This document shows positions 2,595-59,023 of a stretch of 64,000 bases of DNA, in pieces. Below the pieces are notes generated by a model. The model was not told the origin of the DNA. It did not search any database and saw only the letters and a list, made by a program, of their open reading frames with translations. Numbering within the stretch: position 1 is the stretch's first letter; every line of letters begins with the position of its first letter. The stretch is from an uncultured Planctomycetota bacterium. GTDB taxonomy: Bacteria; Planctomycetota; Planctomycetia; Gemmatales; Gemmataceae. The translations under genes and the position numbers were made by a program. The stretch covers positions 896,001 through 960,000 of the forward strand of contig CAWKHF010000005.1 in the NCBI GenBank assembly GCA_963849325.1. The letters run 5' to 3'.

Positions 2595-3446
2595 TTATTC
2601 GGCCGTTCGCCGCATCAGCGTGCCGCGCTCGGGGTCTTCGCTGTACGCGCCGCGTTCGAGGGCGGAGACGAAGTTCGCGACCCAGGCCGACAGCGACGGG
2701 GCGGCGACGGGATGATCGGATCGTCCGCGCCAGCACTCGCGCACGGGACAGCCGGGCGAAGCGAGGTCCAGGCACAGGTAATTGCCGTTGTCGTCGTCGA
2801 GGAAAGGAGTCCAGGACGATTGCCAGCCCTCGTGCGGCTGAGCGTCGAGTTCCTTCTTGGCATCGGCGATTTCTCGGGCGCCCATGAGGTTCCAGCTCTG
2901 CTCGAAGGCGCCGGGGACGTCGGCGTTCTGGCCGTTGTGCCAGCTCAGCCAGGTCCGCAACTCCTCCGGCAGCGGCCGACCCAGCGCCGCGGCCAGGGCG
3001 TCGAGCTTGGCCATGTCGGCGCCCGGCTGCAGCGCCTGCCGGAAACGCGCCCGGTGGGTGCTCAGCCACTCATCGAGGCGAGTCAGCAGGTCGTTCAGAT
3101 TGTGCCCCGACGGCGCCGGCGGGACGGTCGATGTCGCGGGGGCCGCGGCCGGAGGCGGCGCGGCCGCGGGGGCGGATTCAGCTGGCTCCGCGGGACTCTC
3201 CTTCGGTTTGGGTCCGCCGGCGTGGATCGCCTTAAGGGCTTGCTGAATCTGCTCCGTCGCCGGCCCTGGCTCCGCGGCGCCGGCCACGCAGGCACAGACC
3301 CAGGACTCCCAGCTCATGGTGTGCGGCGGCCGACGACCGCCCACCGGACGGACGGACAGTCCCTCCTTGCTCAGGGTGACGGCCAACCGTTCGCCGCCGA
3401 CTTCGATCTCGCGCGTCAAGCTCCGGGTGAACTGCTGCATGACCAA
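2595..3446 (-). CDS. SMI1/KNR4 (SUKH) domain protein with an extra N-terminal domain and Pro/Ala linker
   Basis: LQPGA..AKLDALAAALGRPLPEELRTWLSWHNGQ...W.PFLDDDNGNYLCLDL. Confidence 0.85.
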   Translation of the reverse strand: MVMQQFTRSLTREIEVGGERLAVTLSKEGLSVRPVGGRRPPHTMSWESWVCACVAGAAEPGPATEQIQQALKAIHAGGPKPKESPAEPAESAPAAAPPPAAAPATSTVPPAPSGHNLNDLLTRLDEWLSTHRARFRQALQPGADMAKLDALAAALGRPLPEELRTWLSWHNGQNADVPGAFEQSWNLMGAREIADAKKELDAQPHEGWQSSWTPFLDDDNGNYLCLDLASPGCPVRECWRGRSDHPVAAPSLSAWVANFVSALERGAYSEDPERGTLMRRTAE

Positions 3447-3621
3447 CGCTCCCCACTCGGATAGATGATGGAGGATTGAAGACAGGTTTGGAGAATCCTC
3501 AATCCTCCATCCTCAATCTCTTCCCTGGCATCCTACCGCCGGCGCCCCGGCGTGGACAGGCTTGCGCCGCCGCGGTACAACGATCCTCGGTCGTCGCCCG
3601 TGGTCGGGAGAGGAGGAACGG

Positions 3622-4364: not shown

Positions 4365-4583
4365 TCACGAGGGCGGCGCCGTCTCGGCGGCCTGGAAGCC
4401 ACAGGTGCGATGGTTGCCGTCGCAGAAGGGACGGTTCTTCGATTGGCCGCAGCGGCACAGGGCCACCGACTCCTTGCCCGGCGGGATGGTGAACACGTTG
4501 CCCAGGTGATCGACGATGCGCACCGGGCCTTTGACCACGTAAGGGCCATTCTCACGGCAGCGGATTTCCACGGGTTCCGACAT
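4365..4583 (-). CDS. CDGSH-type iron-sulfur domain protein
   Basis: ENGPYVV and LCRCGQSKNRPFCDGNH. Confidence 0.93.
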   Translation of the reverse strand: MSEPVEIRCRENGPYVVKGPVRIVDHLGNVFTIPPGKESVALCRCGQSKNRPFCDGNHRTCGFQAAETAPPS

Positions 4584-4614
4584 CGGTTGTCCTTTCGTCC
4601 CTTGGGTGTTCTTC

Positions 4615-5292
4615 TCAGCCCTCCATCTCCAGCACGCGGTCGCGCTTGGGGTGGTTCACGAAATAATACGAGAGCCGACGAGCCACGTGTTCCAGGAACT
4701 GCTGGCGGAACTGCATGACGGGCATGTCGAAGCTGCTCAGCCGCGGCTCACTCGGATAAAGGTCCGTGAATTCGTCCGGCTGGAGCGTCTCGTCGGTTTT
4801 CTTGACGTCCTCCAGGGACACCAGGATGTGGGTCCGTCCGTGGTACAACTGCTGATTGGCGTTGGGTTCATAGAGACTCAGCTGGTCGATCTCCAGGACG
4901 ATCACGTAATCCGCCTTGAAATAGCGACCGACCTGGGCCGGATCGAGGCTCTTCCACTCGGGGTGGGTATTCTTGTACTCCTCGACCAGGCGCGGCTTGA
5001 CGATGGTGACTTTCTCCTGGTTCTCCTCGGACAATTGATGGATTTGCCGGGCGAGCATGTCGGTCAGCTGGCGATCGACCTGGGCGAACTCCGGCCGTAG
5101 GTCCAGCCCCATGTAGGTCCACAGGACGACCGTGATTTCCTTATTTTTGTCGTCGGAAGCGAGCCGTTTGTACTTGGCCGGCTCCTTCGCTTCGGGGAAG
5201 AGGAAGTACATGGCCGTGGGGAAACTGCAGCCGGCGACGAGGACGGCCCCGCACAGACTCAGCAGCAAAGCTCCCCGACGCAATCCGTTCAT
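4615..5292 (-). CDS. Hypothetical lipoprotein
   Basis: MNGLRRGALLLSLCGAVLVAGC lipobox; coding-like ORF. Confidence 0.75.
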   Translation of the reverse strand: MNGLRRGALLLSLCGAVLVAGCSFPTAMYFLFPEAKEPAKYKRLASDDKNKEITVVLWTYMGLDLRPEFAQVDRQLTDMLARQIHQLSEENQEKVTIVKPRLVEEYKNTHPEWKSLDPAQVGRYFKADYVIVLEIDQLSLYEPNANQQLYHGRTHILVSLEDVKKTDETLQPDEFTDLYPSEPRLSSFDMPVMQFRQQFLEHVARRLSYYFVNHPKRDRVLEMEG

Positions 5293-5303
5293 GGCTCTCT
5301 CCC

Positions 5304-5818
5304 TCATCCTTGAAATGTCGTGCCGGACCACCACGCCCAGCCGAGAACGATCGCCCAGCGCAGCATCATCAGGCCGAGGAAGGCCAGGACGACCCGAGTG
5401 AGGGCGCGCTCCACCGAGTAAAGGAAGAGCGTCCGTTTGCACACCACGCTGCCCAGGCACCAGGGGATGAGCGTCAGACAGAACAGGGCCAGCAGTGTAC
5501 CGACCCAGTTGGCGCGCAGCGAGTTCGCCAGGTCGCCGTGCATGAGCAAGGAAAAGCTCGTGGTCATGCCGCACGACGGGCACGGCAGGCCGGTTTTGTC
5601 GAAGAACGTGCAGGGCGGCAGGCCCATCTTCTGGTGCGTGGCCATGCGCAGGGGCGAACCGTCCTCGTGGTACGGATTGAGCAGGGCGGCCACGACGAAC
5701 ACGGCGACCAGGGCCAGCGCCACGCCGATCAGCGACCCGCGCACCCAGCGCGGAGGACGGGGATGGCGTCGTACACGTCTGGCTCTTCTTGGCTCGACAG
5801 CGTTGGAAGGGGAGTCAT
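5304..5818 (-). CDS. DUF2752-like membrane protein (probable frameshift near 5755)
   Basis: THQKMGLPPC.F...TGLPCPSCGMTTSF motif plus TM segments. Confidence 0.85.
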
Positions 5819-5856
5819 AGCGATCATCCGGGTGCGATGCAAGGGCAAAAGTTTCC

Positions 5857-5942
5857 AGTTCTGAGTTCTGAGTTCTGAGTTCTGAGTGAAAGAAAGAAGG
5901 AGATGTTTTTCACTCAGAACTCAGAACTCAGAACTCAGAACT
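5857..5942. repeat. Hairpin built from tandem heptamers (AGTTCTG)n / (CAGAACT)n
   Basis: 35-bp arms at 5857-5891 and 5908-5942, each with about four 7-mer units. Confidence 0.9.
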
Positions 5943-6590
5943 TTTTTTTCCGCCGCTTCGGTCGCCGCGTTCATGGCCTGTTCGACCTGAAGGCGGTAGT
6001 GTTCGAGCTGGTCCTTGCCGACGTTCTCGGGCACGCGGATCGGCTCGGCGGTGACGCACACGGCGGCGCTCCACGGATGCGGCACGGCGAAGCGGTCCCA
6101 GCTGCGCACTGCGCCAGGCGCGGGCGAAGGCGACGCCGAAGGGCACGATCGGCAGGCCGGTCAGCGCCGCCAGGTAGACCACGCCCGGCTGGACCTTCCG
6201 TCGCGGCCCGCGCGGTCCGTCCGGCGTGATGGCCAGGTGCGCCGACCGGCTCAGTCGCTGCATCTGCCGGATGGCGCGGGCGCCGCCGCGCGTGGCCGAG
6301 CCGCGCACCACGCGGAAGCCCAGGTGCCGGCACGCCTCGGCGATGAGCTGGCCGTCGGCGTGCTGGCTGATGAGAACGTGGATGTCGCGCCGCCCATAAT
6401 GGTAGGCTGGCACCAGGATGTTCTCATGCCAGAAAGCATACAGATAACGACCTCGCAAGTTCGGCTGATTCGGGTCGAGGTTGGCGCCCATCGGCCGATA
6501 GCGGTAACGCAAGGTGCCAATCCACAAGCGGACCAGCCAGCCGACCGCGAACCCCAGTGCCTTGATTAACATCGGATGGCGAATCTTCAT
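5921..6590 (-). CDS. DUF374 / lysophospholipid acyltransferase family protein (frameshift near 6110)
   Basis: YAFWHE, LISQHADG, VRGSATRGG, AITPDGPRGP, SWDRFAVP.P. Confidence 0.9.
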
Positions 6591-6623
6591 CGCGGGCCTC
6601 CCTGCCACACGGACCCCTTGCGG

Positions 6624-7460
6624 CTACTGGGGCCACTCCCCACGGAACACCTCGACGGCGGGGCCGGTCAGATATACGTGATTATCCGCCTCGGACCACT
6701 CCAGTTGCAAGTCGCCGCCGGGCAAATGCGCGGTGAGGCGTCGCTGCGTCCGTCCGGTGAGATGTCCGGCCACGACGACGGCGCAGGCGCCGGTGCCGCA
6801 AGCCAGCGTCTCCCCCGAGCCGCGCTCCCACACGCGCACGGTCACGTCGTCGGGTCGATTGACGCGGACGAACTCGGCGTTGACGCGGCGCGGAAACGCG
6901 GGATGGCGTTCGACCTGCGGTCCCACGCCGAGGATCAGGGCATCGGTGACATCGTCCACGAAGGTGACGCAGTGCGGATTGCCCATCGATACGCAGGTAA
7001 CGCGCAGCGTCTGCCCGGCCACGTCGAGCCCGGCGTTCAACGGCGGATCGCCGGGCAACGCGGTCGGGATGCGGTCGGCTTGCAGGATCGGCTCGCCCAT
7101 GTCCACGCGCACCTGCCGGACGGCGCCGCCGGCGATTTCCAGTTCTAGCGTCAACACGCCGCGGCCGGTCTCGATGGTCAACGGCGACTTGCGGATCAGG
7201 CCGTGATCGTGGACGAATTTGGCCACGCAACGGACGCCGTTGCCGCACATCTCCGCCTCGCTGCCGTCGGCGTTGTACATGCGCATGCGGGCATCGGCCT
7301 TGTCGGACGGACAGATGAGGATCAGCCCGTCGCTGCCAACGCCGAAGTGTCGGTCGCTGAGGACGCGACTGAGACCGGCTGGATCGTGCGGCATCGATTG
7401 GCGGAAGCAATCGACGTAGACATAATCGTTGCCGCAACCGTGCATTTTGACAAAGTGCAT
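6624..7460 (-). CDS. dapF: Diaminopimelate epimerase
   Basis: [51 protein letters not shown]. Confidence 0.98.
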
Positions 7461-7464
7461 GCCA

Positions 7465-8460
7465 TCAACTCTCTTCCGGCTCATCGGGGATTGGCGGTTG
7501 GTCGGGTGTTTCGATGGAGCGGGCCATAGTCAGGCACTCGCGTAGGAAACTCTCTAACCACCGTATCTGGCTCACCTTCGACCGCTCGAAGAAATGAATC
7601 GATTCGGAGGCCAATTCAGCACCTCGCCACCAGCGGCAGCGGCCAGGAATCCAATTTTCTTCCCCCAACTCACCTTCGCCGAGACGAGCGGCTGCTTCTG
7701 GGTCAATTCGGCAGCGTGTGCCGAACCAAAGTTCGTCTGGATTCTCGTAGGCCAAACCGAACCAATACTTTTGTCCATCGAGCCGGAGTCCAATGTAATC
7801 CCAACTCGCCGCCCTCTTGGCAGGCACTTTGCAAGCGATGGCGGTTTCGTGAAGCATGTTGAGCATGTTTGCCAATGCCCGAATCCCTTCAGGCATGTAT
7901 TTGCCCACTTGCGTCAGATTCATATTTCTCTCCCTCAAAAAGTCGAGAAACTGTCTTGCCAGAAAGCTGGCAATCTCATTGGCTGCCTCTACCGCAGGCA
8001 ACTCGCTTTCCAGCCAATCGGCAACCTCAAACCAGCGGACTTCGAGATCCGGGCGTGTTTCGTCCGCCTGGAATACCTCCGGGTACTGAGTCAAAAGAAC
8101 AAGCCGGGTCTGTTTCATGCCGGATTCAGCCAACAGCACTCGATATCCCTCTAATTGCCCGGCCCACAGCGGCGATTCCGCTTTCACCTCGATCCAAACC
8201 AAGCGATCTTTGGTGCTGATTTCCAGATCCGGCCGTCCCGAGCCGGTTTCAACTTGGGTGTGGATCTCTATGGCGCTGGCATCTCCCGGTGCCAAATCGA
8301 CAAAGCCACCCGTTAGCCGGCTCACCAATCGCATGCCGACCTCGGGAGCCAAAATCAGCAATTGTTCCAGCACAACCGCCAGCGATTCCGTCAGGAAGTT
8401 CTCATCCTGCCGGGCCGCCCATTTGTGTAATCGCGCGAACAGGTTTGGGCCGCTGGCCAA
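7465..8460 (-). CDS. PD-(D/E)XK nuclease family protein
   Basis: ENFLTE, GRPDLEI...WIEVK, QLEGY; visibly lower GC than neighbours. Confidence 0.8.
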
Positions 8461-8536
8461 GGCTCACTCCCATTCGATCATCTTGGTGAAACGCATGAAA
8501 TCAAGAATTCTCTGATTCCTCGGAGCGGTCGAATGA

Positions 8537-8854
8537 CTATGTTTTTTTACGTCCTGGTTCGCGCAGCAATCGCCGGGCTAATACTTTTTTTATTCTCTGC
8601 CAGCATTCTTCGGTAACAAAGTAGGTCTGAGTTGCGGCGTAACGTTTCCCGTCGGCGGTTTCAAAGATCACCAGCCACCCGTTGGGCCGATCCGACAAGC
8701 GCAGGTCTTGTCGGGAACCCAGATAGCGAAGACGTTCGCCGACACGAAAATGACGGCAGGTGTCCCAGGAAAAGCCCTCCCCATCCGGAGAGGCATGAAA
8801 CGCCTGAATACACACAAACTCCTCGCCGGCCTGGCACTCCAGGATCACGCTCAT
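8537..8854 (-). CDS. Hypothetical protein, candidate immunity partner of the upstream toxin-like ORF
   Basis: 105 aa ORF starting 12 nt after the 8867-9148 ORF ends; role inferred from position. Confidence 0.6.
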   Translation of the reverse strand: MSVILECQAGEEFVCIQAFHASPDGEGFSWDTCRHFRVGERLRYLGSRQDLRLSDRPNGWLVIFETADGKRYAATQTYFVTEECWQRIKKVLARRLLREPGRKKT

Positions 8855-8866
8855 CGTTCGCGCCTT

Positions 8867-9148
8867 TCAGGAAAAGTTGTCCTCGCCATGATGAACGTCG
8901 CCATCCGGCCGAACATTTGTATGAGAACCATTCGGATGCTGCACGTCCCAATGAAAATCCTCTTCGCGTCCGCTGGGATGAGGGTGCGGCACCCACTCAT
9001 TGCCGTTCGCATCCAGATAACCATCCTGCGGGCCACGCGGCGGGTTTCTCAACCAATCATCTCGCTTCGGCGGAACAAACGAGTGCCTGCCCCGCCGCGG
9101 AAGCAACCGCCAGGGGTACTTCGTCGGCCAATCCTCTGCCGAAGCCAT
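8867..9148 (-). CDS. Stand-alone polymorphic-toxin-like domain (Ntox17/Ntox37-like, predicted RNase)
   Basis: LP..GR..FVPP...PRGPQDGYLDANGNEWVP...HWDVQHPNGSHTNV.PDG resembles the remembered Ntox17/37 consensus. Confidence 0.7.
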   Translation of the reverse strand: MASAEDWPTKYPWRLLPRRGRHSFVPPKRDDWLRNPPRGPQDGYLDANGNEWVPHPHPSGREEDFHWDVQHPNGSHTNVRPDGDVHHGEDNFS

Positions 9149-9160
9149 TCGGATTTATCC

Positions 9161-10715
9161 TCATTCCCATTCAATCGTCGCCGGCGGCTTGCTGGTGACA
9201 TCGTAAACGACCCGGTTCACTCCCGCCACCGAGTTGACGATCCGCGCCGACACCTTGCCCAGCAATTCATACGGCAGCTTCGACCAGTCGGCGGTCATGA
9301 AATCGTCCGTCTGCACCACGCGCAGGGCGATGACATTTTCATAGGTCCGGCCGTCGCCCATGACGCCGACGGACTGGATCGGCAACAGCACCGCGAACGC
9401 CTGCGACGTTCTGGCGATACCACCCAGACTGCTTCAATTCGTCGAGCAAAATCGCATCGGCCTGGCGGAGAACGGCGAGACGCTCGGCGGTGACGGGACC
9501 GAGGCAGCGCACGGCCAGGCCGGGACCGGGGAACGGATGCCGATAGACCAGTGCCTCGGGCAGCCCCAGCTCGACGCCGAGGCGGCGCACCTCGTCCTTG
9601 AACAAGTCCTTGAGCGGTTCGATCAGCTCGAAGCCGAGTTCCTTGGGCAGTCCACCGACGTTGTGATGGGTCTTGATGTTGGCGGCGGGACCGTCGGCCG
9701 CGCCGCCGCTCTCGATCACGTCCGGGTAGAGCGTGCCCTGGGCGAGGAAGTGAGCGCCCTCGATGTGGCGCGCCTCGTCCTTGAACACGTCGATGAAAAC
9801 GTGACCGATGCGACGCCGCTTCTCCTGCGGATCGCTGATGCCTTCCAGCGCCTGCAGGAAGCGGGCGCCGGCATCGACGATGTGCAAATCGGCCTGGAAA
9901 TGTCCGGTGAACGTGCGCCGCACCGACTCGACCTCGCCCTGGCGCAGCAGGCCATTATCGACGAAGATGCACGACACCTGCCGGCCAACCGCCCGCAACA
10001 GCAGGGCGGCCGTCACCGACGAATCGACGCCGCCGGACAGGCCGCACAGGACGCGCCGATCGCCGACACGCTCGACCAGCGCCGCCACCGTCTGCGACAG
10101 GAATGAGTCGATCCGCCACAAGCCCTGGCAGCCGCACACGTCGTAGAGAAAATTGCGGAGGATGCGCGTGCCCTGCGGCGTGTGGCTGACCTCGGGATGG
10201 AACTGCAAGCCGTAGACGGGACGAGTGCGATGACGGGTCGCGGCCATCGGACAGGTATCGGTCGCGGCCAGGGACACGAAATCGCCCTGCACCAGCTGTA
10301 CCTGGTCGCCGTGGCTCATCCACACGGTCGTCTCGCTCGGCACACCGGCGAACAATCCGTCGGCGTCGGTGATGCGGCAGACGGCTGGGCCGAACTCGCG
10401 GCTGGGGGCCGACAGAACCTTGCCGCCGAGCAGGTGACAGGCCAGTTGCATGCCGTAGCAGATGCCGAGCACGGGGATGCCGAGGTCGAACAGGCGCGGA
10501 TCGCAGCGCGGCGCCTTGGCGGCGTAGACGCTGGCCGGGCCGCCGGAGAAGATCAGGCCGCGCGGCTTCAACTCGGCGATGCGCTCGGCCGCGAGGTCGT
10601 GGCGGACGATCTGGCAAAAGACGTTCAGCTCGCGGACACGGCGGGCGATGAGCTGGCCGTACTGCGAGCCGAAGTCGAGAATCAGGATCGTTTCATTCTC
10701 AGGCAAAGCAGTCAT
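9161..10715 (-). CDS. guaA: GMP synthase, glutamine-hydrolysing (frameshift near 9410)
   Basis: [58 protein letters not shown]. Confidence 0.98.
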
Positions 10716-10723
10716 GGGACTTC

Positions 10724-11023
10724 TTATTGAAAAAAAGACTCCTGATAGTGGCGAATTTCTTCCGGCGTCGGTTCCGGAGAATCGGCCGAAAATTTGGCGA
10801 ACAGCACGTCCAACAAGGAAGCATCGTCAATGCGTCCGTTACTGCGAAAGCGTTCCACTTCAATTTCGCCATTCTGAAGAAATTCGATCTCCCAATACTC
10901 GCCAGGAACACCGGCCACGACCATGATGGCATCGTCGCGCGAATGTTCCATCGTATAAGAGATCTTCGCTCGATCGAGGCGCTCGAGAAAAGCCAGCAGC
11001 TTGGTGAATTGATCGTCTTTCAT
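10724..11023 (-). CDS. Conserved hypothetical acidic protein, candidate immunity/antitoxin
   Basis: LLAFLERL...IMV...[10 protein letters not shown]...[14 protein letters not shown] overlap with the upstream ORF. Confidence 0.7.
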
Positions 11024-11226
11024 TTGTCAAACCTCTTTGTGTTGAGAAGCTTGTAAATCGTTCGGAATCCCGTCTCTCCTCGTTGCGCTTTTTCCACGAC
11101 CTCTTCCCACGTTAAGGACAGGATGTCACCCCAACTCGGAGAACCGGGACCCAAGGGAGCATATTTGATGCGCGCCTGTTTGCCCTTGAGGATCTCGGCG
11201 ACCGTTTTCCCGGCGTAATCCGCCAT
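11020..11226 (-). CDS. Small basic hypothetical protein, candidate toxin domain
   Basis: 68 aa ending [10 protein letters not shown]; starts 1 nt after the proC stop; coupled to 10724-11023. Confidence 0.65.
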   Translation of the reverse strand: MADYAGKTVAEILKGKQARIKYAPLGPGSPSWGDILSLTWEEVVEKAQRGETGFRTIYKLLNTKRFDK

Positions 11227-11227
11227 C

Positions 11228-12044
11228 TCAAGACTCTCCCAATTCTACCGCTCGCCGCGTGGCCGCCTCAACGGCATCCATCAGGGCTCCTCTCACGCCG
11301 CCGCGCTCCAGGGCGTGCAGACCGGCGATGGTGGTGCCGCCGGGACTGGCCACCATGTCCTTGAGCACGCCCGGATGTGTCCGTGTGTCCAGAACCATTT
11401 TCGCCGCGCCGAGCACCGTCTGCGCCGCCAGCGCCGTCGCCACGTCGCGCGGCAAGCCCACGCGCACGCCGCCGTCGGACAGCGCCTCGATCATCAGGTA
11501 CACGAAGGCCGGCCCACTGCCGGACAAGCCGGTGACGGCGTCGAGCAGGTGCTCGGGCAGCCGAAACGCCACGCCGACGGCGCCCAGCAGCCGATCGACC
11601 AGGGCGACGTCCTCGGCCGTGGCGTTCTCGCCGGGGCTGTAGCCGGACGGCGCTGGCGCCAACCAGGCACGGCGTATTCGGCATGACGCGCACCAGCCGG
11701 CAGTCCGGGCCGAGTCCGTCGGCGAGTTGTCGCAGCGTGATGCCGGCCGCGATGGAGACGACCAGCTGCCCCTTCAGCACCGGACGAATTTCCTCCAGGA
11801 GCGCGGCCATCGATTGCGGCTTGACGGCGAGGACGAGCAACTCGCTGGCGGCGACGACCGCGCGGTTGTCGGCGACGGCGGGGCAGCCGGTCTCGGCGGT
11901 GAATGCCTGGCGAGCCAGCGGCAACGGATCACTGGCGCGGCAGTCCTCGGCGCGCACCAACCCGGCCCGCAGCCAGCCCCGCGCCAGCGCCGTCGCCATG
12001 CGTCCGGCGCCCAGGAAACCAATCCGAGCCATCGCGTCCGCCAT
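11228..12044 (-). CDS. proC: Pyrroline-5-carboxylate reductase (frameshift near 11650)
   Basis: [41 protein letters not shown]. Confidence 0.97.
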
Positions 12045-12145
12045 GTCCCGCCGGTCCTCACCTCGGGAGAGAAGCCATCATCATACTGAAAGAGAGAGGT
12101 TGGCGTAAATCCGGATAGGATGTACCGGGGAGTCATTGGCGACGT

Positions 12146-12565
12146 TCAGGCGTCGGCCCAGTTCTCCAGTTGCAGCCCCGGCACCAGGCGAAAGTGGCGC
12201 AGATTGCGGGTGACGAGTGTTGCTCGGTGTGCCAAGGCGATGGCGGCGATGAGCAGGTCGGCGCGACCGATTTTCTTGAGTTTCTTGTCCTGCCGCAAGC
12301 GGTCGAATTCAGCGGCAGATGCGGCATCGATGGAGATGGTGTCGAACTCGTTCAGGTTTTGCTCGGCTTCTTGCAGCAACTGCTGGGCACGTTCCAGTTG
12401 TGCCCCGTCGGCGGCCTTGAGCAGGAAATCCCACCGCCCCCGAAGAACCTCGATTCGGGAAACAATGGTTATGGCGATCAGGTCCGTTGTTGCCAGGGCA
12501 CGCGCCGCCACTCGGGGATGAGCGTGGATAAGCAGCGTCACGGTATCGGTATCGAGGAGGATCAT
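12146..12565 (-). CDS. vapC: PIN-domain VapC-type toxin
   Basis: ILLDTD...E...DLLIAAIALAHRATLVTRNLRHF..VPGL.LENW. Confidence 0.93.
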   Translation of the reverse strand: MILLDTDTVTLLIHAHPRVAARALATTDLIAITIVSRIEVLRGRWDFLLKAADGAQLERAQQLLQEAEQNLNEFDTISIDAASAAEFDRLRQDKKLKKIGRADLLIAAIALAHRATLVTRNLRHFRLVPGLQLENWADA

Positions 12566-12933
12566 TCACCTTCCTCGGTCATCGGCCGACCGCGTTGCCG
12601 ATAAATCTCCTTGAGGAACTCATCAAGGTCCGGATGGTCCTTCCAGGCGCCGATCACGGACAGGATAGCTTCTTTGCTTGATTTCCGCGGCGGCGTGCGC
12701 AGCCAATCTTGCAACGCGGACTTCAAGAATCGCCATTCGCCGCCGATCCGTCGGCCCGGGATGCCGTCGCGGCCAATCATCCCCCGCAGATCGGCTTCCG
12801 CCACGCGCAGATACGCCGCCACCTCAGCCAGCGTCAACACTTCGCTGGACGTATCCGGAGGGGGAGGCGCCATCGGCGGAGACGGTGGCTGGGAAGGTTT
12901 CGTTGGACTCGGTTTCGCTTTCGTTCGCGGCAT
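12562..12933 (-). CDS. Putative antitoxin with excisionase-like HTH (HTH_17)
   Basis: EVLTLAEVAAYLRV...IPGRRIGGEWRF; own RBS (aaggaagg) and ATG at 12933; ATGA overlap with vapC. Confidence 0.85.
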   Translation of the reverse strand: MPRTKAKPSPTKPSQPPSPPMAPPPPDTSSEVLTLAEVAAYLRVAEADLRGMIGRDGIPGRRIGGEWRFLKSALQDWLRTPPRKSSKEAILSVIGAWKDHPDLDEFLKEIYRQRGRPMTEEGE

Positions 12934-12962
12934 GATCGTTCCTTCCTTTCCGGGAAATCTCT

Positions 12963-14540
12963 TTAACTCGCCGCGGCCGGCTCGCGCGGCGGCGCCTCGG
13001 TCGAGTGGATGCGCTGCTCGGCGGCCATCCGCAGGGCGATGCGGTTGATGACCTGCAAGAACGCCAGGGCGCTGGCCTCGATGATGTCGGTGCTCACGGC
13101 CCGGCCGTTGATGACGCTTGCCGTTGTACTCGGCCTCGATGTGGGCCTCGCCCTGGGCGTCCTCGCCGACCGTCACGCTGCGAATGCGGTAATCGCGCAG
13201 CTTCACCTCGATGCCGGTGATCTGCTCGATGGCCTTGAACACCGCATCGACCGGCCCGTCGCCGAGGCTGGCCTGGCGGACGATGGTGCCGTCCTGGTGC
13301 CACAGGCACACCGCCGCCGACGGGATCGTCGCCGAGCCGGCGTTGCACGTCACCGCCTCCAGCGTCCACAGCGTCGGGCCGCTGTGGATCTGCGCCTCGG
13401 CCAGCGCCTCAACGTCGGCGTCGTAAATCACCTTTTTGCGATCGGCCAACGCCTTGAAGCCGTCGAAGACCTTCTGCAACTGCTCTTCGTTGAGGTGATA
13501 GCCCAGGTCGAGGACGCGCTGGCGCAGGGCGTGCCGGCCGCTGTGCTTGCCCAGCACCAACTCCGTCTGCGCCACGCCGACGTCCTCGGGGTTCATGATC
13601 TCGTAGGTGGTCCGCTCCTTGAGCATGCCGTCCTGGTGGATGCCCGCTTCGTGGGCGAAGGCGTTCTGGCCGACGATGGCCTTGTTGCGCTGCACCTGGA
13701 TGCCGGTGACGTGCGACACCAGCCGGCTCGTCGGGTACAGCTTCTTGGTGTTGATGTGCGTCGTGACCTGGAAGTAATCCTGCCGCGTGCGCACGGCCAT
13801 GACGACCTCTTCGAGGGCGCAGTTGCCGGCGCGTTCGCCGAGGCCGTTGATGGTGCATTCGACCTGGCGGGCGCCCTCGGCGATGGCGGCGAGGCTGTTG
13901 GCCACGGCCATGCCGAGGTCGTTGTGGCAGTGGACGCTGATGATCGCCTTGTCGATGCCGCGGACGTGCTTCTTGAGGTGGGCGATGGCGGCGGCGTACT
14001 GGCTCGGGCACCGCGTAGCCGACCGTGTCGGGGATGTTCACCGTCGTCGCGCCGGCCTCGATGGCGCGCTCGACCACTTCGGTCGAGGAAATCCAGTTCG
14101 GTGCGGGCGGCGTCCTCCGGCGAGAACTCGACGTCGTCGCAGTAGCCGCGGCGCGCTGGACGCCCTCGACGGCGCGGCGGATGATCTCTTCCTTGGCCAT
14201 CTTGAGCTTGAATTCGCGGTGGATGGCGCTGGTGGCGAGGAAGACGTGGATGCGCGGCCGGGCGCAGTCGCGCAGGGCTTCGCCGGCGCGGTCGATGTCG
14301 GCGGCGTTGCAGCGGGCCAGGCCGCAGATGATCGGCCCCTCGACCTCGCGGGCGATGGCCTGCACCGCCTCGAAGTCGCCCGGCGAGGCGATGGGGAAGC
14401 CGGCCTCGATGACGTCCACGCCGAGATCCTTGAGGGCGTGCGCCACCTGGAGCTTCTCGGCCAGGTTCATGCTGGCGCCCGGGCGATTGCTCGCCGTCGC
14501 GCAGCGTCGTGTCGAAGATGATCAGGCGGTCGTCGGTCAT
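12963..14540 (-). CDS. leuA: 2-isopropylmalate synthase (several indels)
   Basis: IFDTTLRDGEQSPG, IEAGFP, NIPDTVG, GERAGN, NAFAHEAGIHQDG, LGKHSGR, GDGPVDA; true-frame stop TAA at 12965-12963. Confidence 0.96.
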
Positions 14541-14555
14541 GGTCGGACTCCGGCG

Positions 14556-14589
14556 AAGAAAAAAGCCCTGGGATTTCCGTCCCAGGGCT
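14556..14589 (-). terminator. Attenuator (intrinsic terminator) upstream of leuA
   Basis: Minus strand AGCCCTGGGA-cggaaa-TCCCAGGGCT followed by a T-run, ending about 15 nt before the leuA ATG. Confidence 0.9.
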
Positions 14590-14628
14590 GTGCTCAGCAA
14601 GCGCGAAGGAAACACCGGCTGGAGGCGC

Positions 14629-14691
14629 CTAGGACCCGTCTCCGCGAAGGAGAAGCGTGTCGAGCAGGCTGAAAAGTAGCTGAGTCGTCAT
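14629..14691 (-). CDS. Leu-rich leader peptide MTTQLLFSLLDTLLLRGDGS (leuL-like)
   Basis: 20 codons with 7 Leu (CTA CTT, CTG CTC, CTT CTC CTT), directly before the terminator and leuA. Confidence 0.85.
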   Translation of the reverse strand: MTTQLLFSLLDTLLLRGDGS

Positions 14692-14750
14692 GGCGGTGTC
14701 GGAAGGGCGAGGGCGTTCCGCTGTTGGTGCGCAAGAAAACCTTAGCAGAT

Positions 14751-14779
14751 AGTGTAGGGGTTCCAGGCGAGGAAGGCAA
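14751..14779 (-). promoter_or_regulatory. sigma70-type promoter for the leu leader and leuA
   Basis: TTGCCT (14779-14774), 17-nt spacer, TACACT (14756-14751). Confidence 0.6.
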
Positions 14780-14806
14780 CGGCTCTTTTGTCTTTACCCG
14801 CTTGCT

Positions 14807-16314
14807 GGGTGGGCAGCTGTTACTTGGGTGGGTTTTTGGCTTGTCGCGCGATAGGTTGACTCCCAGGTCCAAAACGCACACGCCTTCTTCACACTCAGGA
14901 GTTGCATCATGGCTTCCCAGCACGGTCCTTCCCCAGTGGCCCCATCCCGCCAAGAACGCATCGAAGCCATCCTGCAACAGCTGCGACCCCAGATCGAACA
15001 GACCGTTCGCCAGCTTGTCGAAAGGGCCGTCGATGTTCCCGAGGCGGAGGAATTCGGCGCCATCGACTTCGAGTTCCGCGATGCCGGGCAGAAGCTGGTC
15101 AACCACGTCCGGCAAGCCAGCGTGGCGAGCCGGAAAAAAAGGGCTACGTAGGCTCCAGCGTACGCTGCACCTTGTGCGGGCACACGGCCAAGTTTCATTC
15201 CTACCAGTCCCGGCGGCTGTTGACCGTGCATGGCGAGGTGCGTCTGGAGTGCGCCTATTACTACTGTGCCCGCTGCCACCACAGTTGCATCCCCTACGAC
15301 GAGGTACTGGGCTTGCACGATGCCATCAGCCCCGGCTTGCGGCCGCTGGTCTGTCTGGCCGGGACGATGGTGCCCTTCGGCGATGCGTCCGAAGACATCC
15401 TCCGGCGTTTCTCCGGAGTGCGTCTGTCGGCTTCCTCGGTATTGCGCTGTACCCAAGGGGAGGGCGAACGCTTGCGGGCGCAGCAGAAAGCGGGGCCGAT
15501 GGTCGAGCCGACGCAGCCCGAACTCCTCTGGACCGCACCGCGAAGGGAAGGGCAGCCCGCGGCCTATGTCGGCCTGGACGCCTTCAGCGTGCCGATGCAG
15601 GGGATCGGAGCAGGCAAGGCCGAGCATCGCATGCTCTACACCGCGTTGTTGTACACGCCGCAAAAGGAGCACAGCCGCTACCTGGTCGATTTCGACCTCG
15701 ATGTGCTGGCGGAGCAAGTGCGCGCGCAGGCCCGGGCGTTGGGCGTTACGCGGGTGAGTGACTTGATCGCCGTGACCGACGGCGGCAACGGCCTGGAAGA
15801 AGCCTTGCAGCGTCACCTGGCCGAGAACCTGACGACTATCCTGGATTGGTATCACGCCGCCGAACACCTCTGTGCCTTCGCCAACGTCTGGCATGCCGGC
15901 GAGGAAACGGCCCGCGTGCTGTGGCAGCAGCAGGCCAAAGGAATCCTCTATGAGCAAGGGGGCGAAGCCTTGCTCACCTTTTTGCGGGCGTTGGACTTGC
16001 CGCCGGAGACATCGGCAGAGGTTCACGAGGAACTGCGGAAGCTGATCGGCTACTTCGAGAACAACCGGCATCGCACCGATTATCCGCGCTATCGTCAGAA
16101 GGGCTGGGACATCGGCAGTGGGCCGACGGAGGCGGGCTGCAAGATCATCGGTGAAAGGCTCAAGGGTTCGGGCATGCGCTGGGTAGAAGACGGTGCGGCG
16201 ACCGTGGCGGCCCTACGGGCTTTATATGTCAGTGGCGGCAAGGTGTGGGACGGCTTCTGGTCGCAGCCTCACCGCGCCGCCGCGTAAAGTCACCCAAGTA
16301 AATGATTCACACCC
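14807..16314 (+). mobile_element. Insertion sequence, ISKra4-like, 1508 bp
   Basis: IRL GGGTGGGCAGCTGTTACTTGGGTG vs reverse-complemented IRR GGGTGTGAATCATTTACTTGGGTG (19/24); direct repeat CCGCTTGCT at 14798-14806 and 16315-16323. Confidence 0.92.
14909..16287 (+). CDS. ISKra4-family DDE transposase in two ORFs joined by a -1 shift at A7G (15134-15141)
   Basis: CxxC...YYYCxxC, DGGNG, ILDWYHAAEHL, YF.NN..R.DY..YR..GW.IGSG..EAGCK.I...RLK.SGMRW. Confidence 0.9.
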
Positions 16315-43991: not shown

Positions 43992-45928
43992 ATGCCGAAA
44001 GGCGCTGAGCCGGAATTGATGGACAAATGGAAGATCGCAGGACGCCGTCGAGACCTACGGCGTCCGCAACTGGGGCAAGGGCTACTTCGGCATCAACAAG
44101 GCCGGCCACGTCACCGTCCAGCCGAACAAACGCCCCGACGAGTCGATCGACCTCAAGGAGCTGGTCGATCAGCTCCAGGCACGCGGCATCCAGCTGCCGA
44201 TCCTGCTCCGCTTCACCGACATCCTCCGCCACCGCGTCGGCGAGATCCACGACGCCTTCCAGCAGCGCCATCGACGAGTACGAGCTACCAGGGCAGCTAC
44301 TGCTGCGTCTACCCCATCAAGGTCAACCAGCAGCGGCACGTCGTCGAGGAGATCCTCGACTTCGGCAAGCCCTACCACTTCGGCCTGGAGGCCGGCTCCA
44401 AGCCCGAACTGCTGGCCGTGCTGGCCCTGACCAACGGCCTGGACACGCCGATCATCTGCAACGGCTTCAAGGACGACGAGTTCATCAAGCATGACCATGC
44501 TCGCCCGCAAGATCGGCAAGAACATCATCCCGGTCGTCGAGAAGTTCACCGAGCTGGAAGCTGATCGTCCGTCACGCCGAGGAGCTGCAACGTCCGGCCG
44601 GCCATCGGCGTGCGCGTCAAGCTGGCCGCCGCGCGGCGCCGGCCGCTGGCAGTCCAGCGCCGGCTACCGCTCCAAGTTCGGCCTGACCCTGACCGAGGTG
44701 CTCGAGGCCGTCGAGTACCTCAAGCAGCGCGACATGGCCGACTGCCTGCAACTGGTCCACTTCCACCTCGGCAGCCAGATCACCAACATCCGCAGCATCA
44801 AGAACGCCCTGACCGAGGCGGCGCGCGTCTACGTCGAGCTGCACCGCGTCGGCGCCGGCGTCAAGTACATCGACGTCGGCGGCGGCCTCGGCATCGACTA
44901 CGACGGCTCGCAGACCGACTTCGAGTCGTCGGTCAACTACACGCTGCAGGAGTACGCCAACGACGTCGTCTTCCGCGTCAAGAGCGTCTGCGACGAGGCC
45001 GGCGTGCCGCACCCGACGATCATCTCCGAGTCGGGCCGGGCCGTGGTCGCCTACCACAGCGTGCTGGTCTTCGACGTGCTGGGCGTGTCGCAACTTCGAC
45101 CGCTTCGAGGCGCCGCCGGAGGTGCCCGCCGACGCGCCGCAGCAGATCGCCGACCTGTTCGCCATCCACCGCGACCTGAAGAAGAAGAACCTGCTGGAGA
45201 GCTACCACGACGCCGTGCAGGCGGTGGACGAGGCGCTCAACCTGTTCAACCTCGGCTACTGCACGCTCGAGCATGCGCGCCCTGGCCGAGCGGCTGTTCT
45301 GGGCGATGTGCGGCAAGCTGCTGAAGATCGTCCGCGAGATGGACTACGTCCCGGAGGAGTTGCAGGGCCTGGAGGCGATGCTGTCGGACACCTACTTCTG
45401 CAACTTCTCGATCTTCCAGTCGATGCCCGACAGCTGGGCGATCAAGCAGCTCTTCCCGATCATGCCGATCCACCGGCTCAACGAGGCGCCGACGCCGCCG
45501 GGCCGTGCTGGGCGACATCACCTGCGACTCGGACGGCAAGATCGACCAGTTCATCGACCTGCGCGACGTGCGCAACACGCTGGAGCTGCACCCGTTCAAC
45601 GGCGAGCCGTACTACCTCGGCGCGTTCCTGCTCGGGGCGTACCAGGAAATCCTCGGCGACCTGCACAACCTGTTCGGCGACACCAACGCCGTCCACGTCA
45701 GCCTCGACGAGGACGGCGAGATCGACCTCGACGACGGTCATCAAGGGCGACACGGTGCGCGAGGTGCTGGCCTACGTGCAGTACTCCGCCGACGAGCTGA
45801 CGGCGCAGTCTGCGCAAGGACGTGGAGCGGGCCGTGCGACGGGGCAAGATCTCGCTGACGGAATCGCGGCAGCTGCTGCGCTTCTACGAGTCGGGCTGGA
45901 AGGGTATACTTACCTGGAAGAACCGTAA
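43992..45928 (+). CDS. speA: Biosynthetic arginine decarboxylase (many indels)
   Basis: [85 protein letters not shown]. Confidence 0.95.
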
Positions 45929-45975: not shown

Positions 45976-46621
45976 ATGCCTGTGAAAGTGCGTGATATCC
46001 ACGCCCAAAGCCTGGAGACTTCCACGGCCCTGTCGGCATACTACATAACCAATTTCATTCCGCCGCTGGAAGTGTTTCGCGTCCTCAACGCGGCACAAAT
46101 GCGTTTCATGCTCCTGGGAACCCACGCCCTGGGCGGTTGGATGCGCGAGCCACGCACCACCACGGACGTTGATATCCTCGTTGGAAATCGCGGCCACAAG
46201 AAGGCCGTGCGGCGTTTTGCTGGCGGCGTTTCCGCAGTTACAAGCGGAAGAAGAGGAGGACGTGACTCGTCTCCGGGATGGGGAGACGGGGCAAGTTCTC
46301 ATCGACGTGATGAAGACGAATCAACCGCTCTACCGGGCCGCCTTCCGGCACCGTCATGGCGTGAAATGGGAGGGACAGGTCTATTCAATTCCTTCGTTGG
46401 AATTGGCCCTGGTGATGAAGTTCACGGCCATGGTCAGCGTCACTCGCGACTATGCGGACAAATACATTGACGCCCACGACTTCCTTTGCATGGCCCAATC
46501 CAACGCCGACATGGATTCGAGAAAACTGCACGCCCTCGGCCAGCTGGTCTACAACGGCGGAGGCGATGAGATCGTGGAAAAAGTTCGCAAGGTGCGGGCC
46601 GGCGAGAAGTTGACCCTGTAG
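45976..46621 (+). CDS. Stand-alone nucleotidyltransferase (MNT/AbiEii-like; frameshift near 46215)
   Basis: LLGTHAL.....[11 protein letters not shown]; ...IDV..., LALVMKF, R...K..D..D. Confidence 0.7.
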
Positions 46622-53632: not shown

Positions 53633-53989
53633 TCAGGGAAGTTCCAGCGCCACTTTGAGGCAGGCGTTGACCTTCTGCATCAGCCCGGCCGATAGTTTGC
53701 CGATCACCCGGTCGATACGGTCTCCGAACACGGTTGCCAGGAAGAGGCCGCTCACCAGCGCGTTTTGATCCAGCCCGGTCGCCTTCCCCTCGGGTGTCGT
53801 TGTGTCGATGAAAACGAAGGCGGGATCGTTGGCGGGCGCCAAATTCGTCGTGATCTCCGCGACGATAACGTGCCCGACCGTGGAGTTGTAGCCATCCGCT
53901 TGCACTACCAGCGCCGGCCGTTTCTTCCCCCGCAGCCCGCCTGCATGGGGGAAACGTGTCAGGACTACGTCGCCACGAGTTACCTTCAT
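53633..53989 (-). CDS. PemK/MazF-family toxin
   Basis: RGDVV..RFP......KKRPALVVQ.D..N....VIVAEITTN. Confidence 0.93.
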   Translation of the reverse strand: MKVTRGDVVLTRFPHAGGLRGKKRPALVVQADGYNSTVGHVIVAEITTNLAPANDPAFVFIDTTTPEGKATGLDQNALVSGLFLATVFGDRIDRVIGKLSAGLMQKVNACLKVALELP

Positions 53990-54201
53990 TCGTCCTTACC
54001 GTAACGGTCGAGTAGCGCCACCGACTCCTCCCGCAACCAATCCATCTCCGCCGCGTCCCACGGACTGTCATCATAGCCCCCCTCGGCGAGGCGGTCGTAC
54101 ACGTCGGGCCGCAGCAGCACGTATTCTCGATCGTCCTCCTGAATCCGCACGGCCTTCCCCTGGTCGATGGATTGACGCTGTTCTTCGGTGAGTTCGATCA
54201 T
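53986..54201 (-). CDS. Putative antitoxin
   Basis: Acidic 71 aa (EYVLLRPDVYDRL); RBS aaggag; ATGA overlap with the toxin. Confidence 0.75.
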   Translation of the reverse strand: MIELTEEQRQSIDQGKAVRIQEDDREYVLLRPDVYDRLAEGGYDDSPWDAAEMDWLREESVALLDRYGKDE

Positions 54202-54279
54202 GGCTGTCTCCTTTGCGGGCATCTTACCAAGGGGACACCGCTGCGGACAAGTAGGTGCTAGCGCCTTTTCGAGCGCGTC

Positions 54280-55980
54280 TCACCAGCACCGCCGGGCCGC
54301 CTCCAGCATGGCGGCGGCTTCTTGCCGCGTCGTCTCGCCGCGTGCCTCGCCGCGCAACATGCTGGCCAATTCTTCCAGCCGCTCCGGCTCCGGCAGCAGC
54401 TGAATCTGCGTGACGCGTGCGTTTGCCGCGGCGCGACTTGCGGATGGTCCAGTGATGGCGGGCGTAGCTGGCCACCTGCGGCAGATGCGTCACGCAAATG
54501 ACCTGATGCGTCTGGCCCAGAGCGGCTAGCTTTTGTCCGAGCACGTCGCCGAGCCGGCCGCCGACGTTGGCGTCGATCTCGTCGAAGACCAGCGTGCCGC
54601 GGCGATCGTGTCCGGCCAGCACCGTCTTGAGGGCGAGCATGGTGCGCGATAGCTCGCCGCCGGACGCCACCTTGCGCAGCGGCAGGGCCGGCTCGCCGGG
54701 GTTGGCCGCCAGCGTCAGCTCCAACTGATCGGCGCCCCAGGCGGGAACGTCGGATTGAGCCGGATCGTCGCCCAGCGGGATCGTCTCCAGCACGGCCTCC
54801 AGCTTGGCCCCGACCATGCCGAGGTCGGCGAACTGCTTCTGCGTCTCCTTCGCCAGACGGTCGGCGACGCGCTGTCGCTGCTTGCTCAGCTCGGCGGCGG
54901 CTTCGCGGAGCTGTCGATATGCCTCCGCCAGCTCGGCGTCGATGCTCTCCAGGTCGTCTTCCTGTTGCCGTAGCCGCGTTTCCTGCTCGTCCAGGCTGAT
55001 GCGGTAGACGATCAGGTCATCCACGGAGCGGCGATACTTGCTCTCCAGCCGGCGGAGGAACTGCAAGCGGCGCTCGACCTCCTCGAGCCGTTCCGGGTCG
55101 GCCTCCCAGCGCTGACCGAGCTGGCGCAGCACCTGGGCCAGATCCTGCACCTCGGACGTGCAGCGCCTCCAGCCGCCGCACCACTTCTTCCAGACTCGGA
55201 TCGAGCGCCGCCCACGACTGCGCCTCGCGCTGCAGCTTGCCGAGCCGTTCGACGACCGAACCGTCCTCGTCGTACAGCTCGCCACAGCCCAGCGTGGCGA
55301 AGGTTTGCAAGTTCTGGGCGTGGGCCAGCCGTTCGCGCTCGCGCGTCAGCTCGGCGACCTCGCCCGGCTCAAGGCTGGCCTGATCCAGCTCCTCGCGCTC
55401 GAAGCGCAGCAGGGCCAGCTCGCGCTGGCGCTGCTGGCGCTCGGCCGACAGCGTGTGGTGACGGCGGCGCAGCTCGCGCACGCGCTCCGCCAGGGTCAGG
55501 TACTTGCGCCGCGGCCCTTCGAGATGGCCATAAGCGTCGAGCAATTGCAGTTGGTAGGCGGGCTGCAACAGCGATTCCGTTTCGCGCTGGCCGTGGATAT
55601 CGACCAGCAGGTTGCCGATCTGCTTGAGGGTGGCGAGGACGACCGGCTGATCGTTGGCGTAGGCGTGGCTGCGGCCATTGCCGTGCAGCCGCCGCGCCAG
55701 GATGATCTCGTCCTCGTCGAGCGCTGCCTCCGAGGATGCCCTCGATCTCGCGGCGCGTCTCGGCGGAAGTCAGCTCGAACCGCCCGGTGACGCGCAACTC
55801 GTCGGCGCCGGCGCGGAGCAGGTCGGCCGAGCCGCGTTCGCCGAGCAGCAGGCCGAGAGCGCCGAGCAAGAGCGATTTGCCGGCCCCGGTCTCGCCGGTC
55901 CAGGCGCAGAAGCCCGGCTGCAGCTCGACGCGCACGTCCTCGATCAGCGCCAGGTTCTGCACGGATAATTCGCGCAGCAT
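54280..55980 (-). CDS. recN: DNA repair protein RecN (several indels)
   Basis: TGETGAGKS, ASGGELSR.MLALK, VFDEIDANVGG, QVICVTHLPQVA, R.EELASML.G. Confidence 0.96.
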
Positions 55981-58757: not shown

Positions 58758-58958
58758 TCATGCGTTCCCAGCGTCGCCGCCATTCAAAAGCGCCGGTGTA
58801 AGCGGGTGAAGGAGATAGCGGCTGAGTGCTGTCTCCTTCAAGTGTGCTTCAAGAGCCTTCATGAGTATCCATTCGCTGCAGTAGACCGGGACGTCATTCT
58901 GGTCTTTCGAGGTATTGCGGCTCTCCGGCCAGCTCGGCAGGTGAGTTCGTTCGGCCAT
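58758..58958 (-). CDS. Possible small hypothetical protein
   Basis: 66 aa ORF with a purine-rich SD-like leader; no family recognised. Confidence 0.25.
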   Translation of the reverse strand: MAERTHLPSWPESRNTSKDQNDVPVYCSEWILMKALEAHLKETALSRYLLHPLTPALLNGGDAGNA

Positions 58959-59023
58959 CCTTTCCTCTTTCCGCCGGCTATGGTATCCTCTCAGGAGAAA
59001 CGGATCATCCAGGAGGAACGGCC

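Follow-up and report, generated by a model that had tools for sequence, protein, structure and literature searches.

In a 64,000-nucleotide (nt) stretch of contig CAWKHF010000005.1 (positions 896,001 to 960,000, assembly GCA_963849325.1; here called the window) from an uncultured planctomycete of the Gemmataceae, the spacers between proC and guaA and between guaA and dapF are probably hot spots for accessory modules, and two alleles of the guaA-dapF spacer appear to have been stacked by an illegitimate join through the core-gene flank, a reading that we hold with moderate confidence. The join is legible as a 33-base scar between the genes for p105 and p331, two of the proteins encoded in that spacer. 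The observed arrangement is real and goes beyond chance; the interpretation in a preliminary description of this DNA was partly right, and overreached in proposing a dispersed defense array. The features of the guaA-dapF slot are as follows.

9161..10715, minus strand: guaA, with GATase and ATP-PPase in one open reading frame (ORF) and GMP_synt_C in another; one-base insertion near 9406
8867..9148, minus strand: free-standing 93-amino-acid (aa) Ntox17/Ntox37-type toxin domain; Ntox17 46.6 bits (cutoff 25), Ntox37 30.7 bits (cutoff 27.8)
8537..8854, minus strand: p105, predicted at 105 aa, a candidate immunity protein by position, starting 12 nt after the toxin stop
8464..8496, minus strand: recombination scar, 33 bases, made of dapF codons 1 to 6 (8496-8479) and the last four guaA codons and stop (8478-8464)
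7465..8460, minus strand: p331, PD-(D/E)XK-like in its N-terminal domain and alpha/beta in its C-terminal one, TTG start; motif and weak PDDEXK_4 match
6624..7460, minus strand: dapF; DAP_epimerase 2e-69

The scar reads ATG CGT TTC ACC AAG ATG (the start of dapF) joined to ATC GAA TGG GAG TGA (the end of guaA), and is followed by GCC and then the TTG start of p331. The two parts are joined in frame into a 10-codon mini-ORF, MRFTKMIEWE*, that ends 3 nt before the TTG, the same spacing that separates the guaA stop from the p331 start in a relative, L003. The dapF part is identical at 17/18 nt to the dapF start of another relative, L023, and the guaA part, including a 3-nt overlap, at 17/18 to the guaA end of L003; neither value is reached in any of 5000 shuffles of the 76-nt spacer that separates p105 from p331. 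With blastn-short, the matches of this spacer coincide exactly with the ends of guaA and the starts of dapF in relatives, and one of them spans the entire L003 junction from guaA stop to p331 start at 18/18. The peptide MRFTKM is matched at E = 0.001.

The guaA 3' end is thus present twice in the window, as the real end (9178-9161) and as the relic (8478-8464), in a direct repeat that brackets the Ntox and p105 genes. The preliminary description reported no flanking repeats, which is contradicted by this duplication and by the dapF-start relic at 8496-8479, and it called the acquisition route unknown, a point on which the scar is informative in pointing to recombination through the flanking core genes. 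At the join, nothing beyond A-G is common to the two scar parts (≤1-2 nt of microhomology). The guaA-end relic differs at 3/18 positions from the window's own copy, and the dapF relic at 5/18 from the window's own dapF start and at only 1/18 from that of L023, which suggests a diverged source. A nonhomologous join with little microhomology, a homologous anchor, and duplicated recipient sequence, as in products of homology-facilitated illegitimate recombination (HFIR), are all present in the scar and the duplicated guaA end.

At least two rearrangements have affected this slot, because L001, the closest relative of the window, has its own relic there that cannot derive from the window's scar. 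In the otherwise empty guaA-dapF spacer of L001, this separate relic of the dapF 5' end (codons 5 to 14, L001 5963-5994) is 25/32 identical to L001's own dapF (0/500 shuffles reach the score; peptide KVHG*GNDYI). We also considered a relic of the p331 3' end upstream of the scar, which is weak (44/2000 shuffles against L003, driven by the 8 nt TTGATTTC), not significant against the p331 of the window or of L002, and not used here. Searches of the other slots of relatives for relics of core-gene termini returned three chance-level matches only, all on the reverse strand, and a nucleotide match in L009 is borderline (5/500 shuffles).

The relatives were sampled as 80 loci retrieved with GuaA, against which the window proteins were compared by tblastn. 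GuaA is 89% identical in the best locus (L001) and 68 to 78% in the next, which are metagenome-assembled genomes of Gemmatales/Gemmataceae, and the remainder are from other planctomycetes. One contig among them, L018 (CAYRFQ010000001.1), is labeled 'uncultured Alcaligenaceae bacterium', yet its GuaA groups with the Gemmatales and its proC and guaA are adjacent; the taxonomic label looks wrong. proC is directly upstream of guaA in 21/80 loci and dapF is downstream of guaA in 11/80, often with DUF374 and DUF2752 next after dapF, and proC-guaA-dapF-DUF374-DUF2752-...-CDGSH is a conserved colinear core block of the Gemmatales. The GuaA tree places L001 as sister to the window (Shimodaira-Hasegawa-like approximate likelihood ratio test support 98; 39 rows, quick method), and L001 is colinear with the window from the proC start to the CDGSH gene at 71 to 83% (about 80%) nucleotide identity. 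It has none of the cargo, with the arrangement proC-45 nt-guaA-131 nt-dapF.

Comparison of the guaA-dapF slot in 11 loci gives a varied picture. L003 has p331 (65% identical) with the same guaA-stop/TTG-start junction, L002 has a frameshifted p331 (42%) together with a secreted protein of ~140 aa, and the same secreted protein stands directly after guaA in L020. The L002 p331 homolog (4560-5502) is split over two frames with 6 stop codons within, and may be a copy in decay or the product of a sequencing error. In L009 the slot is filled by a PIN/DUF1308 protein together with a DUF3349-like one, in L052 by a 62-aa ORF, and the remaining loci of the 11 are empty. The Gemmata/Fimbriiglobus group (L021, L022, L028, and L030) has a conserved small protein after guaA instead of dapF, with a membrane protein next in L021, L028, and L030; the L022 contig ends before that point.

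The second slot, between proC and guaA, has these features in the window.

11228..12044, minus strand: proC; F420_oxidored 2.2e-17; one-base insertion near 11650
11020..11226, minus strand: p68, basic, 68 aa, first gene of a two-gene module; orthologue at 66% in the same slot of L009
10724..11023, minus strand: p99, acidic, 99 aa, of a widespread family; overlaps the p68 stop by 4 nt

The proC-guaA spacers of the 21 loci are <100 nt in 11, 101 to 184 nt in 6, and 328 to 805 nt in 4. L009 has orthologues of both p68 (66%) and p99 (54%) with the same tight junctions as the window, L004 and L010 have unrelated ORFs without a family, and L022 has no clear ORF. On the GuaA tree (an 11-row clade), p68 and p99 are found only in the window and L009, and p331 only in the window, L002, and L003. 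The preliminary description had called for such a synteny comparison, and it shows that the core genes are adjacent elsewhere and that a given slot may carry identical cargo, other cargo, or none; with flanks that are conserved and cargo that varies from one relative to the next, the locus qualifies as a core-gene-flanked hot spot. This does not extend to every junction of the block, in that the one between dapF and DUF374 is occupied in 0/7 cases seen, 6 of them in relatives and one in the window, where the spacer ranges from 0 to ~140 nt.

Upstream of proC, the window departs from its relatives. There, and at the downstream end of the run, the features are these.

12963..14550 (start approximate), minus strand: leuA (2-isopropylmalate synthase), with its stop at 12965-12963; HMGL-like, HCS_D2, and LeuA_dimer over two ORFs
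12562..12933, minus strand: 123-aa HTH_17/excisionase-type DNA-binding protein, putative antitoxin; Pfam HTH_17 6.6e-11
12146..12565, minus strand: 139-aa PIN-domain VapC-type toxin; Pfam PIN 3.2e-9, 37.9 bits against a cutoff of 23.6
12045..12145, minus strand: spacer of 101 nt upstream of proC, containing a promoter-like site; L001 is colinear from 12020 onward
5931..6623, minus strand: DUF374 gene (Pfam), continuing the conserved block, then DUF2752 and the CDGSH gene

Synteny with L001 stops at the proC start, and the leuA-proC adjacency with its VapBC pair is therefore specific to this genome. None of leuA, HTH17, VapC, Ntox, and p105 has a tblastn match in any of the 80 loci. We note that PIN-type toxin-antitoxin (TA) pairs are also encoded upstream of proC on the opposite strand in L016 (8369-8979, minus) and L009 (6479-7116, minus), and the left border of the block appears to attract such modules in several lineages.

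The minus-strand order leuA, HTH_17 and PIN (VapC), proC, p68 and p99, guaA, Ntox17-37 and p105, p331, and dapF is confirmed, and Pfam, NCBIfam, and the coordinates bear out that all genes of this run (~14.5-6.6 kb) are co-oriented, as the preliminary description had it. Most junctions are tight, ranging from a 4-nt overlap to 12 nt. Starting from leuA, they are 29 nt to HTH17, a 4-nt overlap of HTH17 and VapC, and 101 nt to proC; 1 nt from proC to p68, a 4-nt overlap of p68 and p99, and 8 nt to guaA; and 12 nt from guaA to Ntox, 12 nt to p105, 76 nt to p331, and 4 nt to dapF, whose true start, by comparison with the dapF starts of relatives, is MHFVKM at 7460. The five junctions of 1 to 12 nt and two 4-nt overlaps agree with the several junctions of 1 to 12 nt noted before, and the inserts are indeed less GC-rich than the core genes (GC of 0.50 to 0.62 versus 0.61 to 0.72, and third-position GC [GC3] of 0.56 to 0.72 versus 0.77 to 0.88). 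The window as a whole has a GC content of 64.8% and encodes PSCyt, PSD, and DUF1552, Pfam families typical of planctomycetes. No integrase, transposase, or recombinase family is found among the 136 window ORFs (16 + 120) scanned with Pfam, in accord with the earlier observation that an integrase is absent. No attC-like or other repeat common to the cassettes emerged, a repeat search over 7300-13100 giving GC-rich chance matches only, and Rfam gives 0 matches over 5000-16000.

We propose that the proC-guaA and guaA-dapF spacers act as hot spots for small, co-oriented modules of low GC3, with the leuA-proC spacer occupied in this genome only. Under this proposal, guaA-Ntox-p105-dapF and guaA-p331-dapF would formerly have been alternative alleles of one slot. 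DNA of the first allele would have paired with the second through guaA, and the other end of the donor would have been joined illegitimately, on ≤1-2 nt of microhomology, 15 nt before the recipient guaA stop. Such an event would be HFIR, and an unequal exchange or the integration of a circle would yield the same product. Cargo would move as alleles by way of the flanking core genes, with no integrase, and would be transcribed from core-gene promoters; the tight packing and the co-orientation of the cargo with homology support fit a dependence on core-gene transcription. It is plausible that translation of p331, which has a stop 3 nt ahead of its TTG, is coupled to that of the ORF upstream, with the scar mini-ORF serving as the coupling leader here, and if so, the scar preserves coupling. 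In a more ambitious version, which we regard as doubtful, the stop-proximal spacers of the Gemmatales would be true exchange sites, the termini of guaA, dapF, and proC would serve as homology arms, and small modules of toxin, immunity, and nuclease type would pass between lineages as alleles, with core-dependent transcription and, through termination-reinitiation, core-dependent translation. Were this so, in-frame stacking joins such as the MRFTKMIEWE* leader would be kept, and arrays of conflict genes would be built in an integron-like manner with no integrase.

Several points weigh against the stacking of exchanged alleles. The donor allele it predicts, guaA-Ntox-p105-dapF without p331, is not seen in the 80 loci. 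An intrachromosomal tandem duplication of guaA3'-p331-dapF5', the first copy then being replaced, would leave the same scar. Sliding-window identity reveals no clear mosaic tract in guaA, a result that is uninformative, and the evidence comes from a single assembly that carries indel errors. There is no relic of p68 or p99 in the 45-nt proC-guaA spacer of L001 (642/1000 and 462/1000 shuffles reach the score). Promoter-like sites, TTTACG-18-TATGAT at 12109-12080 and another at 11271-11242 (consensus matches only), suggest that the cargo may have promoters of its own. Part of the cargo in relatives is not conflict-related, including the secreted protein, a GNAT protein, and the pair of conserved small protein and membrane protein. 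Finally, p68, p99, and p331 are diverged and have the same junctions in distant relatives, which old residence with loss fits as well.

This last point leads to the best-surviving alternative, namely, that the small genes are old vertical residents, patchy through deletion only, and that the scar arose by internal tandem duplication. p68, p99, and p331 have diverged further than the core proteins that flank them (54 to 66% versus 73 to 83% identity), with identical junctions in L009 and L003, and the dapF 5'-end relic in the empty spacer of L001 is what deletion of former content might leave. p331 in particular is conserved in hundreds of Gemmataceae sequences and looks like a strongly conserved lineage gene rather than a sporadic cassette: it has 309 homologs, and among the best 120, identity is never below 65% and length is 316 to 342 aa with one exception. 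The low GC3 of this gene is stable (0.62 in the window and 0.61 in L003), so that low GC3 is no mark of recent arrival. Vertical residence would nonetheless require many independent losses, including one in the sister L001, to account for the distribution of p68 with p99 and of p331 on the tree; it leaves no relic in the proC-guaA spacer of L001, it does not account for unrelated cargo in the same slots, and the dapF-start relic resembles other lineages more than it does the dapF of the window. We consider this explanation unlikely overall, and note that for p68 with p99 and for p331, repeated capture and old residence with repeated loss cannot be told apart.

The cargo itself is of several kinds. 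The HTH17 and VapC genes, with their 4-nt stop/start overlap, have what appears to be the standard two-gene architecture of a VapBC-type TA system. The DNA-binding protein matches TIGR01764 at 30.6 bits (cutoff 28.8), and the toxin matches NCBIfam VapC models at up to 1.2e-13, below their cutoffs (51.5 versus 140). The basic p68 and acidic p99, likewise overlapping by 4 nt, resemble a candidate toxin-immunity or TA pair. The p68 family is rare, with 6 clusters including its own among 5.8 billion proteins, and p68 has no match in Pfam, NCBIfam, or PADLOC; a profile match to ribosomal protein L11 at E of about 0.3 was treated as noise. In contrast, p99 belongs to a widespread family with 622 representative clusters at E ≤ 1e-3, of which 0/57 members scanned match a Pfam family covering the p99 domain, the sole match being Mrr_N in 1/57. 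Its predicted structure is confident (predicted local distance difference test score [pLDDT] of 87.9) with 0 fold matches in the PDB at E ≤ 1e-3. A sequence search of the PDB with p99, p331, p105, and Ntox returned nothing meaningful, and a search on plasmids and phages gave no match for p99 or p331.

The 93-aa Ntox protein belongs to a stand-alone set of 56 clusters, mostly of ~93 aa (60 to 115 aa), whose named sources are Gemmataceae and Tepidisphaerales. Residues E51, H66-W-D68, H76, N78, and H87 are invariant in 17 sequences, which fits the conserved E and Hx[DH] descriptors of Zhang et al. 2012 (PMC3482391). It is 34 to 46% identical to the C-terminal tips of VENN/DUF637 toxins encoded on proteobacterial plasmids, one of which, a Pantoea Ntox17 cassette, is followed by an Imm31 gene. 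The 93-aa form begins at an ATG of its own, 12 nt past the guaA stop, and has no N-terminal region of the trafficking or repeat kind; the search did not extend to longer forms. p105 has no match in Pfam (E ≤ 10), NCBIfam, PADLOC, or the PDB, does not match the associated immunity families Imm31 and Imm32, and has no similarity to the Imm31 protein beside the Pantoea cassette.

p331 carries the motif GRPD78LEI...WIE91VK93AE, in which D78 and E91 are, like E25, invariant among 21 sequences and K93 is at least 90% conserved. Its match to PDDEXK_4 is weak (14.9 bits, cutoff 22.3), 14/21 members match below the cutoff (best E, 0.0011), and Atlas neighbors of stored p331 homologs carry PDDEXK_4 in 12 to 28% of members. 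The predicted model (pLDDT 78) has no PDB match at E ≤ 0.001, the top matches being Hjc, MspJI, BspD6I, and Bax1 at E of 0.008 to 0.05, and its C-terminal half is matched by YbjN-like and chaperone-like folds.

The view of the inserts as conflict modules thus stands in part, in that several conflict-type modules do occupy variable slots, and fails in part, since the cargo of relatives is also nonconflict and p331 is a conserved gene. A dispersed defense array was not borne out, with PADLOC giving only an HTH-domain match (mad1, 3.3e-8) and one weak match at E = 0.039. That array would be the outcome of a dedicated capture mechanism placing conflict modules behind core-gene stops, a proposal that draws on the five short junctions and two 4-nt overlaps, the co-orientation of all cargo with homology support, the toxin-like or nuclease-like character of three or four of the modules, and the presence of more toxin-type modules beside recN and aspS in the window. 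We regard it as very unlikely: no recombinase was found among the window ORFs scanned and no attC-like or other shared repeat over 7300-13100, PADLOC finds no known defense system, ordinary illegitimate recombination explains the scar, ordinary genes are among the cargo of relatives, and the dapF-DUF374 junction is unoccupied in all cases seen.

The assembly deserves comment, as the preliminary description overlooked that the core genes leuA, proC, and guaA are frameshifted in it. leuA has 4 frame changes (frames 0>2>0>1>2 in three-frame translation), as a result of which ORF calling fuses the leuA tail to HTH_17. proC and guaA have one frame change each, a one-base insertion relative to the intact genes of L001, and TIGR00112 covers only model positions 1-133 of 263 in the proC ORF, with the C-terminal half in another frame. 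There are 6 single-base frameshifts in ~4.7 kb of leuA, proC, guaA, and dapF and none visible in ~2.9 kb of lower-GC inserts, and most likely these are residual indel errors in GC-rich stretches of a long-read contig rather than pseudogenes. p68, p99, Ntox, and p331 are intact, because full-length homologs of equal size match them. We note that aspS (595-2518), recN (54227-55345), and speA (44431-45900) are likewise split by frameshifts. That the stacking or the scar is an assembly artifact, a chimera of two strain haplotypes, is the least probable explanation, for although the single-base frameshifts, the 1.16-Mb contig typical of long-read assemblies, and the frequency of strain mixtures in metagenomes might favor it, a graph chimera joins at shared sequence and not 18 nt of dapF to 15 nt of guaA on 1-2 nt of microhomology, the relics are diverged from the window's own copies (3/18 and 5/18 positions), L003 shares the guaA-stop/p331-start junction found downstream of the scar, and an independent assembly, L001, has its own relic in the same slot.

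Toxin- and immunity-type genes are also found elsewhere in the window. Directly after recN (53633-54222, minus), a 78-aa ORF overlaps a PemK/MazF gene by 4 nt, in agreement with the MazEF-like insert described previously, and next comes an ORF of 320 aa that has an HExxH-like motif and matches no family. Just upstream of the frameshifted aspS (2598-3512, minus) is a gene for an immunity-type protein of the SUKH-1 (SMI1/KNR4) family, and an ORF at 58865-59461 (plus) matches the Unstab_antitox addiction-module component (1.2e-9), marking another TA-type locus. The insert after speA (45976-46621, plus), previously called a nucleotidyltransferase, is an ORF pair split over two frames that has no match in Pfam or NCBIfam. 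Upstream of leuA, a strong terminator-like hairpin (10 pairs, then a T-run; 14564-14589, minus) lies just before the gene, and the leuA run probably starts a new transcription unit there.

Core-gene-flanked hot spots are widely described, but the step by which they are filled rarely leaves a readable scar, and this locus offers an example at base resolution of how small toxin-type modules come between essential genes without mobile-element machinery. It also points to families that lack coverage in the libraries tried, namely, the widespread p99, its rare partner p68, and the conserved PD-(D/E)XK-like p331 of the Gemmataceae, with free-standing Ntox17/37 toxin tips as a fourth candidate group. 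We found no literature on TA systems in the Gemmataceae or on such core-gene slots there.

Chromosomal type II TA modules can lie behind housekeeping genes, as does mazEF behind relA in Escherichia coli. The HTH17-VapC and 78-aa-MazF pairs resemble these in having two genes with 4-nt overlaps, co-oriented with the upstream core gene, and differ in that several unrelated modules occupy consecutive slots, the variability of which is evident from synteny. Integron cassettes are similarly small, co-oriented, and variable in occupancy, and are promoterless and expressed from an upstream promoter; however, there is no intI integrase, attI/attC site, or shared repeat here, and the junctions are core-gene ends.

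Closer parallels are the core defense hot spots of Pseudomonas aeruginosa, which have conserved core flanks and for which homologous recombination through those flanks has been put forward as the means of exchange (PMC10250203). The P. aeruginosa loci share with ours variable cargo, a lower cargo GC content, and no obvious mobile-element hallmarks. They differ in size, with slots of 0.3 to 1.7 kb here and medians of 6 to 26 kb there, and in that the present slots are consecutive within one tight co-directional housekeeping run, hold no recognized defense system, and include a junction scar that documents one stacking event. Effector-immunity modules are displaced and stacked by HFIR in Vibrio clusters encoding type VI secretion systems (T6SS), and likewise in T6SS, rearrangement hot spot (Rhs), and contact-dependent inhibition (CDI) loci (PMC5361080). 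The likeness lies in a one-sided homologous anchor, an illegitimate join, an older module shifted downstream, and remnants of the 3' end of the upstream gene, and, like the CdiA/VENN polymorphic toxin cassettes (PMC3482391), the cargo includes an Ntox17/37-type tip. Our case departs from the T6SS, Rhs, and CDI loci in that guaA, a housekeeping gene, takes the place of a toxin gene as the anchor, that the toxin domain stands alone, starting from an ATG of its own and lacking a trafficking domain, and that a nuclease-like gene rather than an orphan immunity gene is the module shifted downstream. This locus is a clear case of a genomic hot spot of known type and not a new kind of system, set apart by its smaller scale, its housekeeping anchor, its consecutive slots in a co-directional core run, and its readable in-frame scar.

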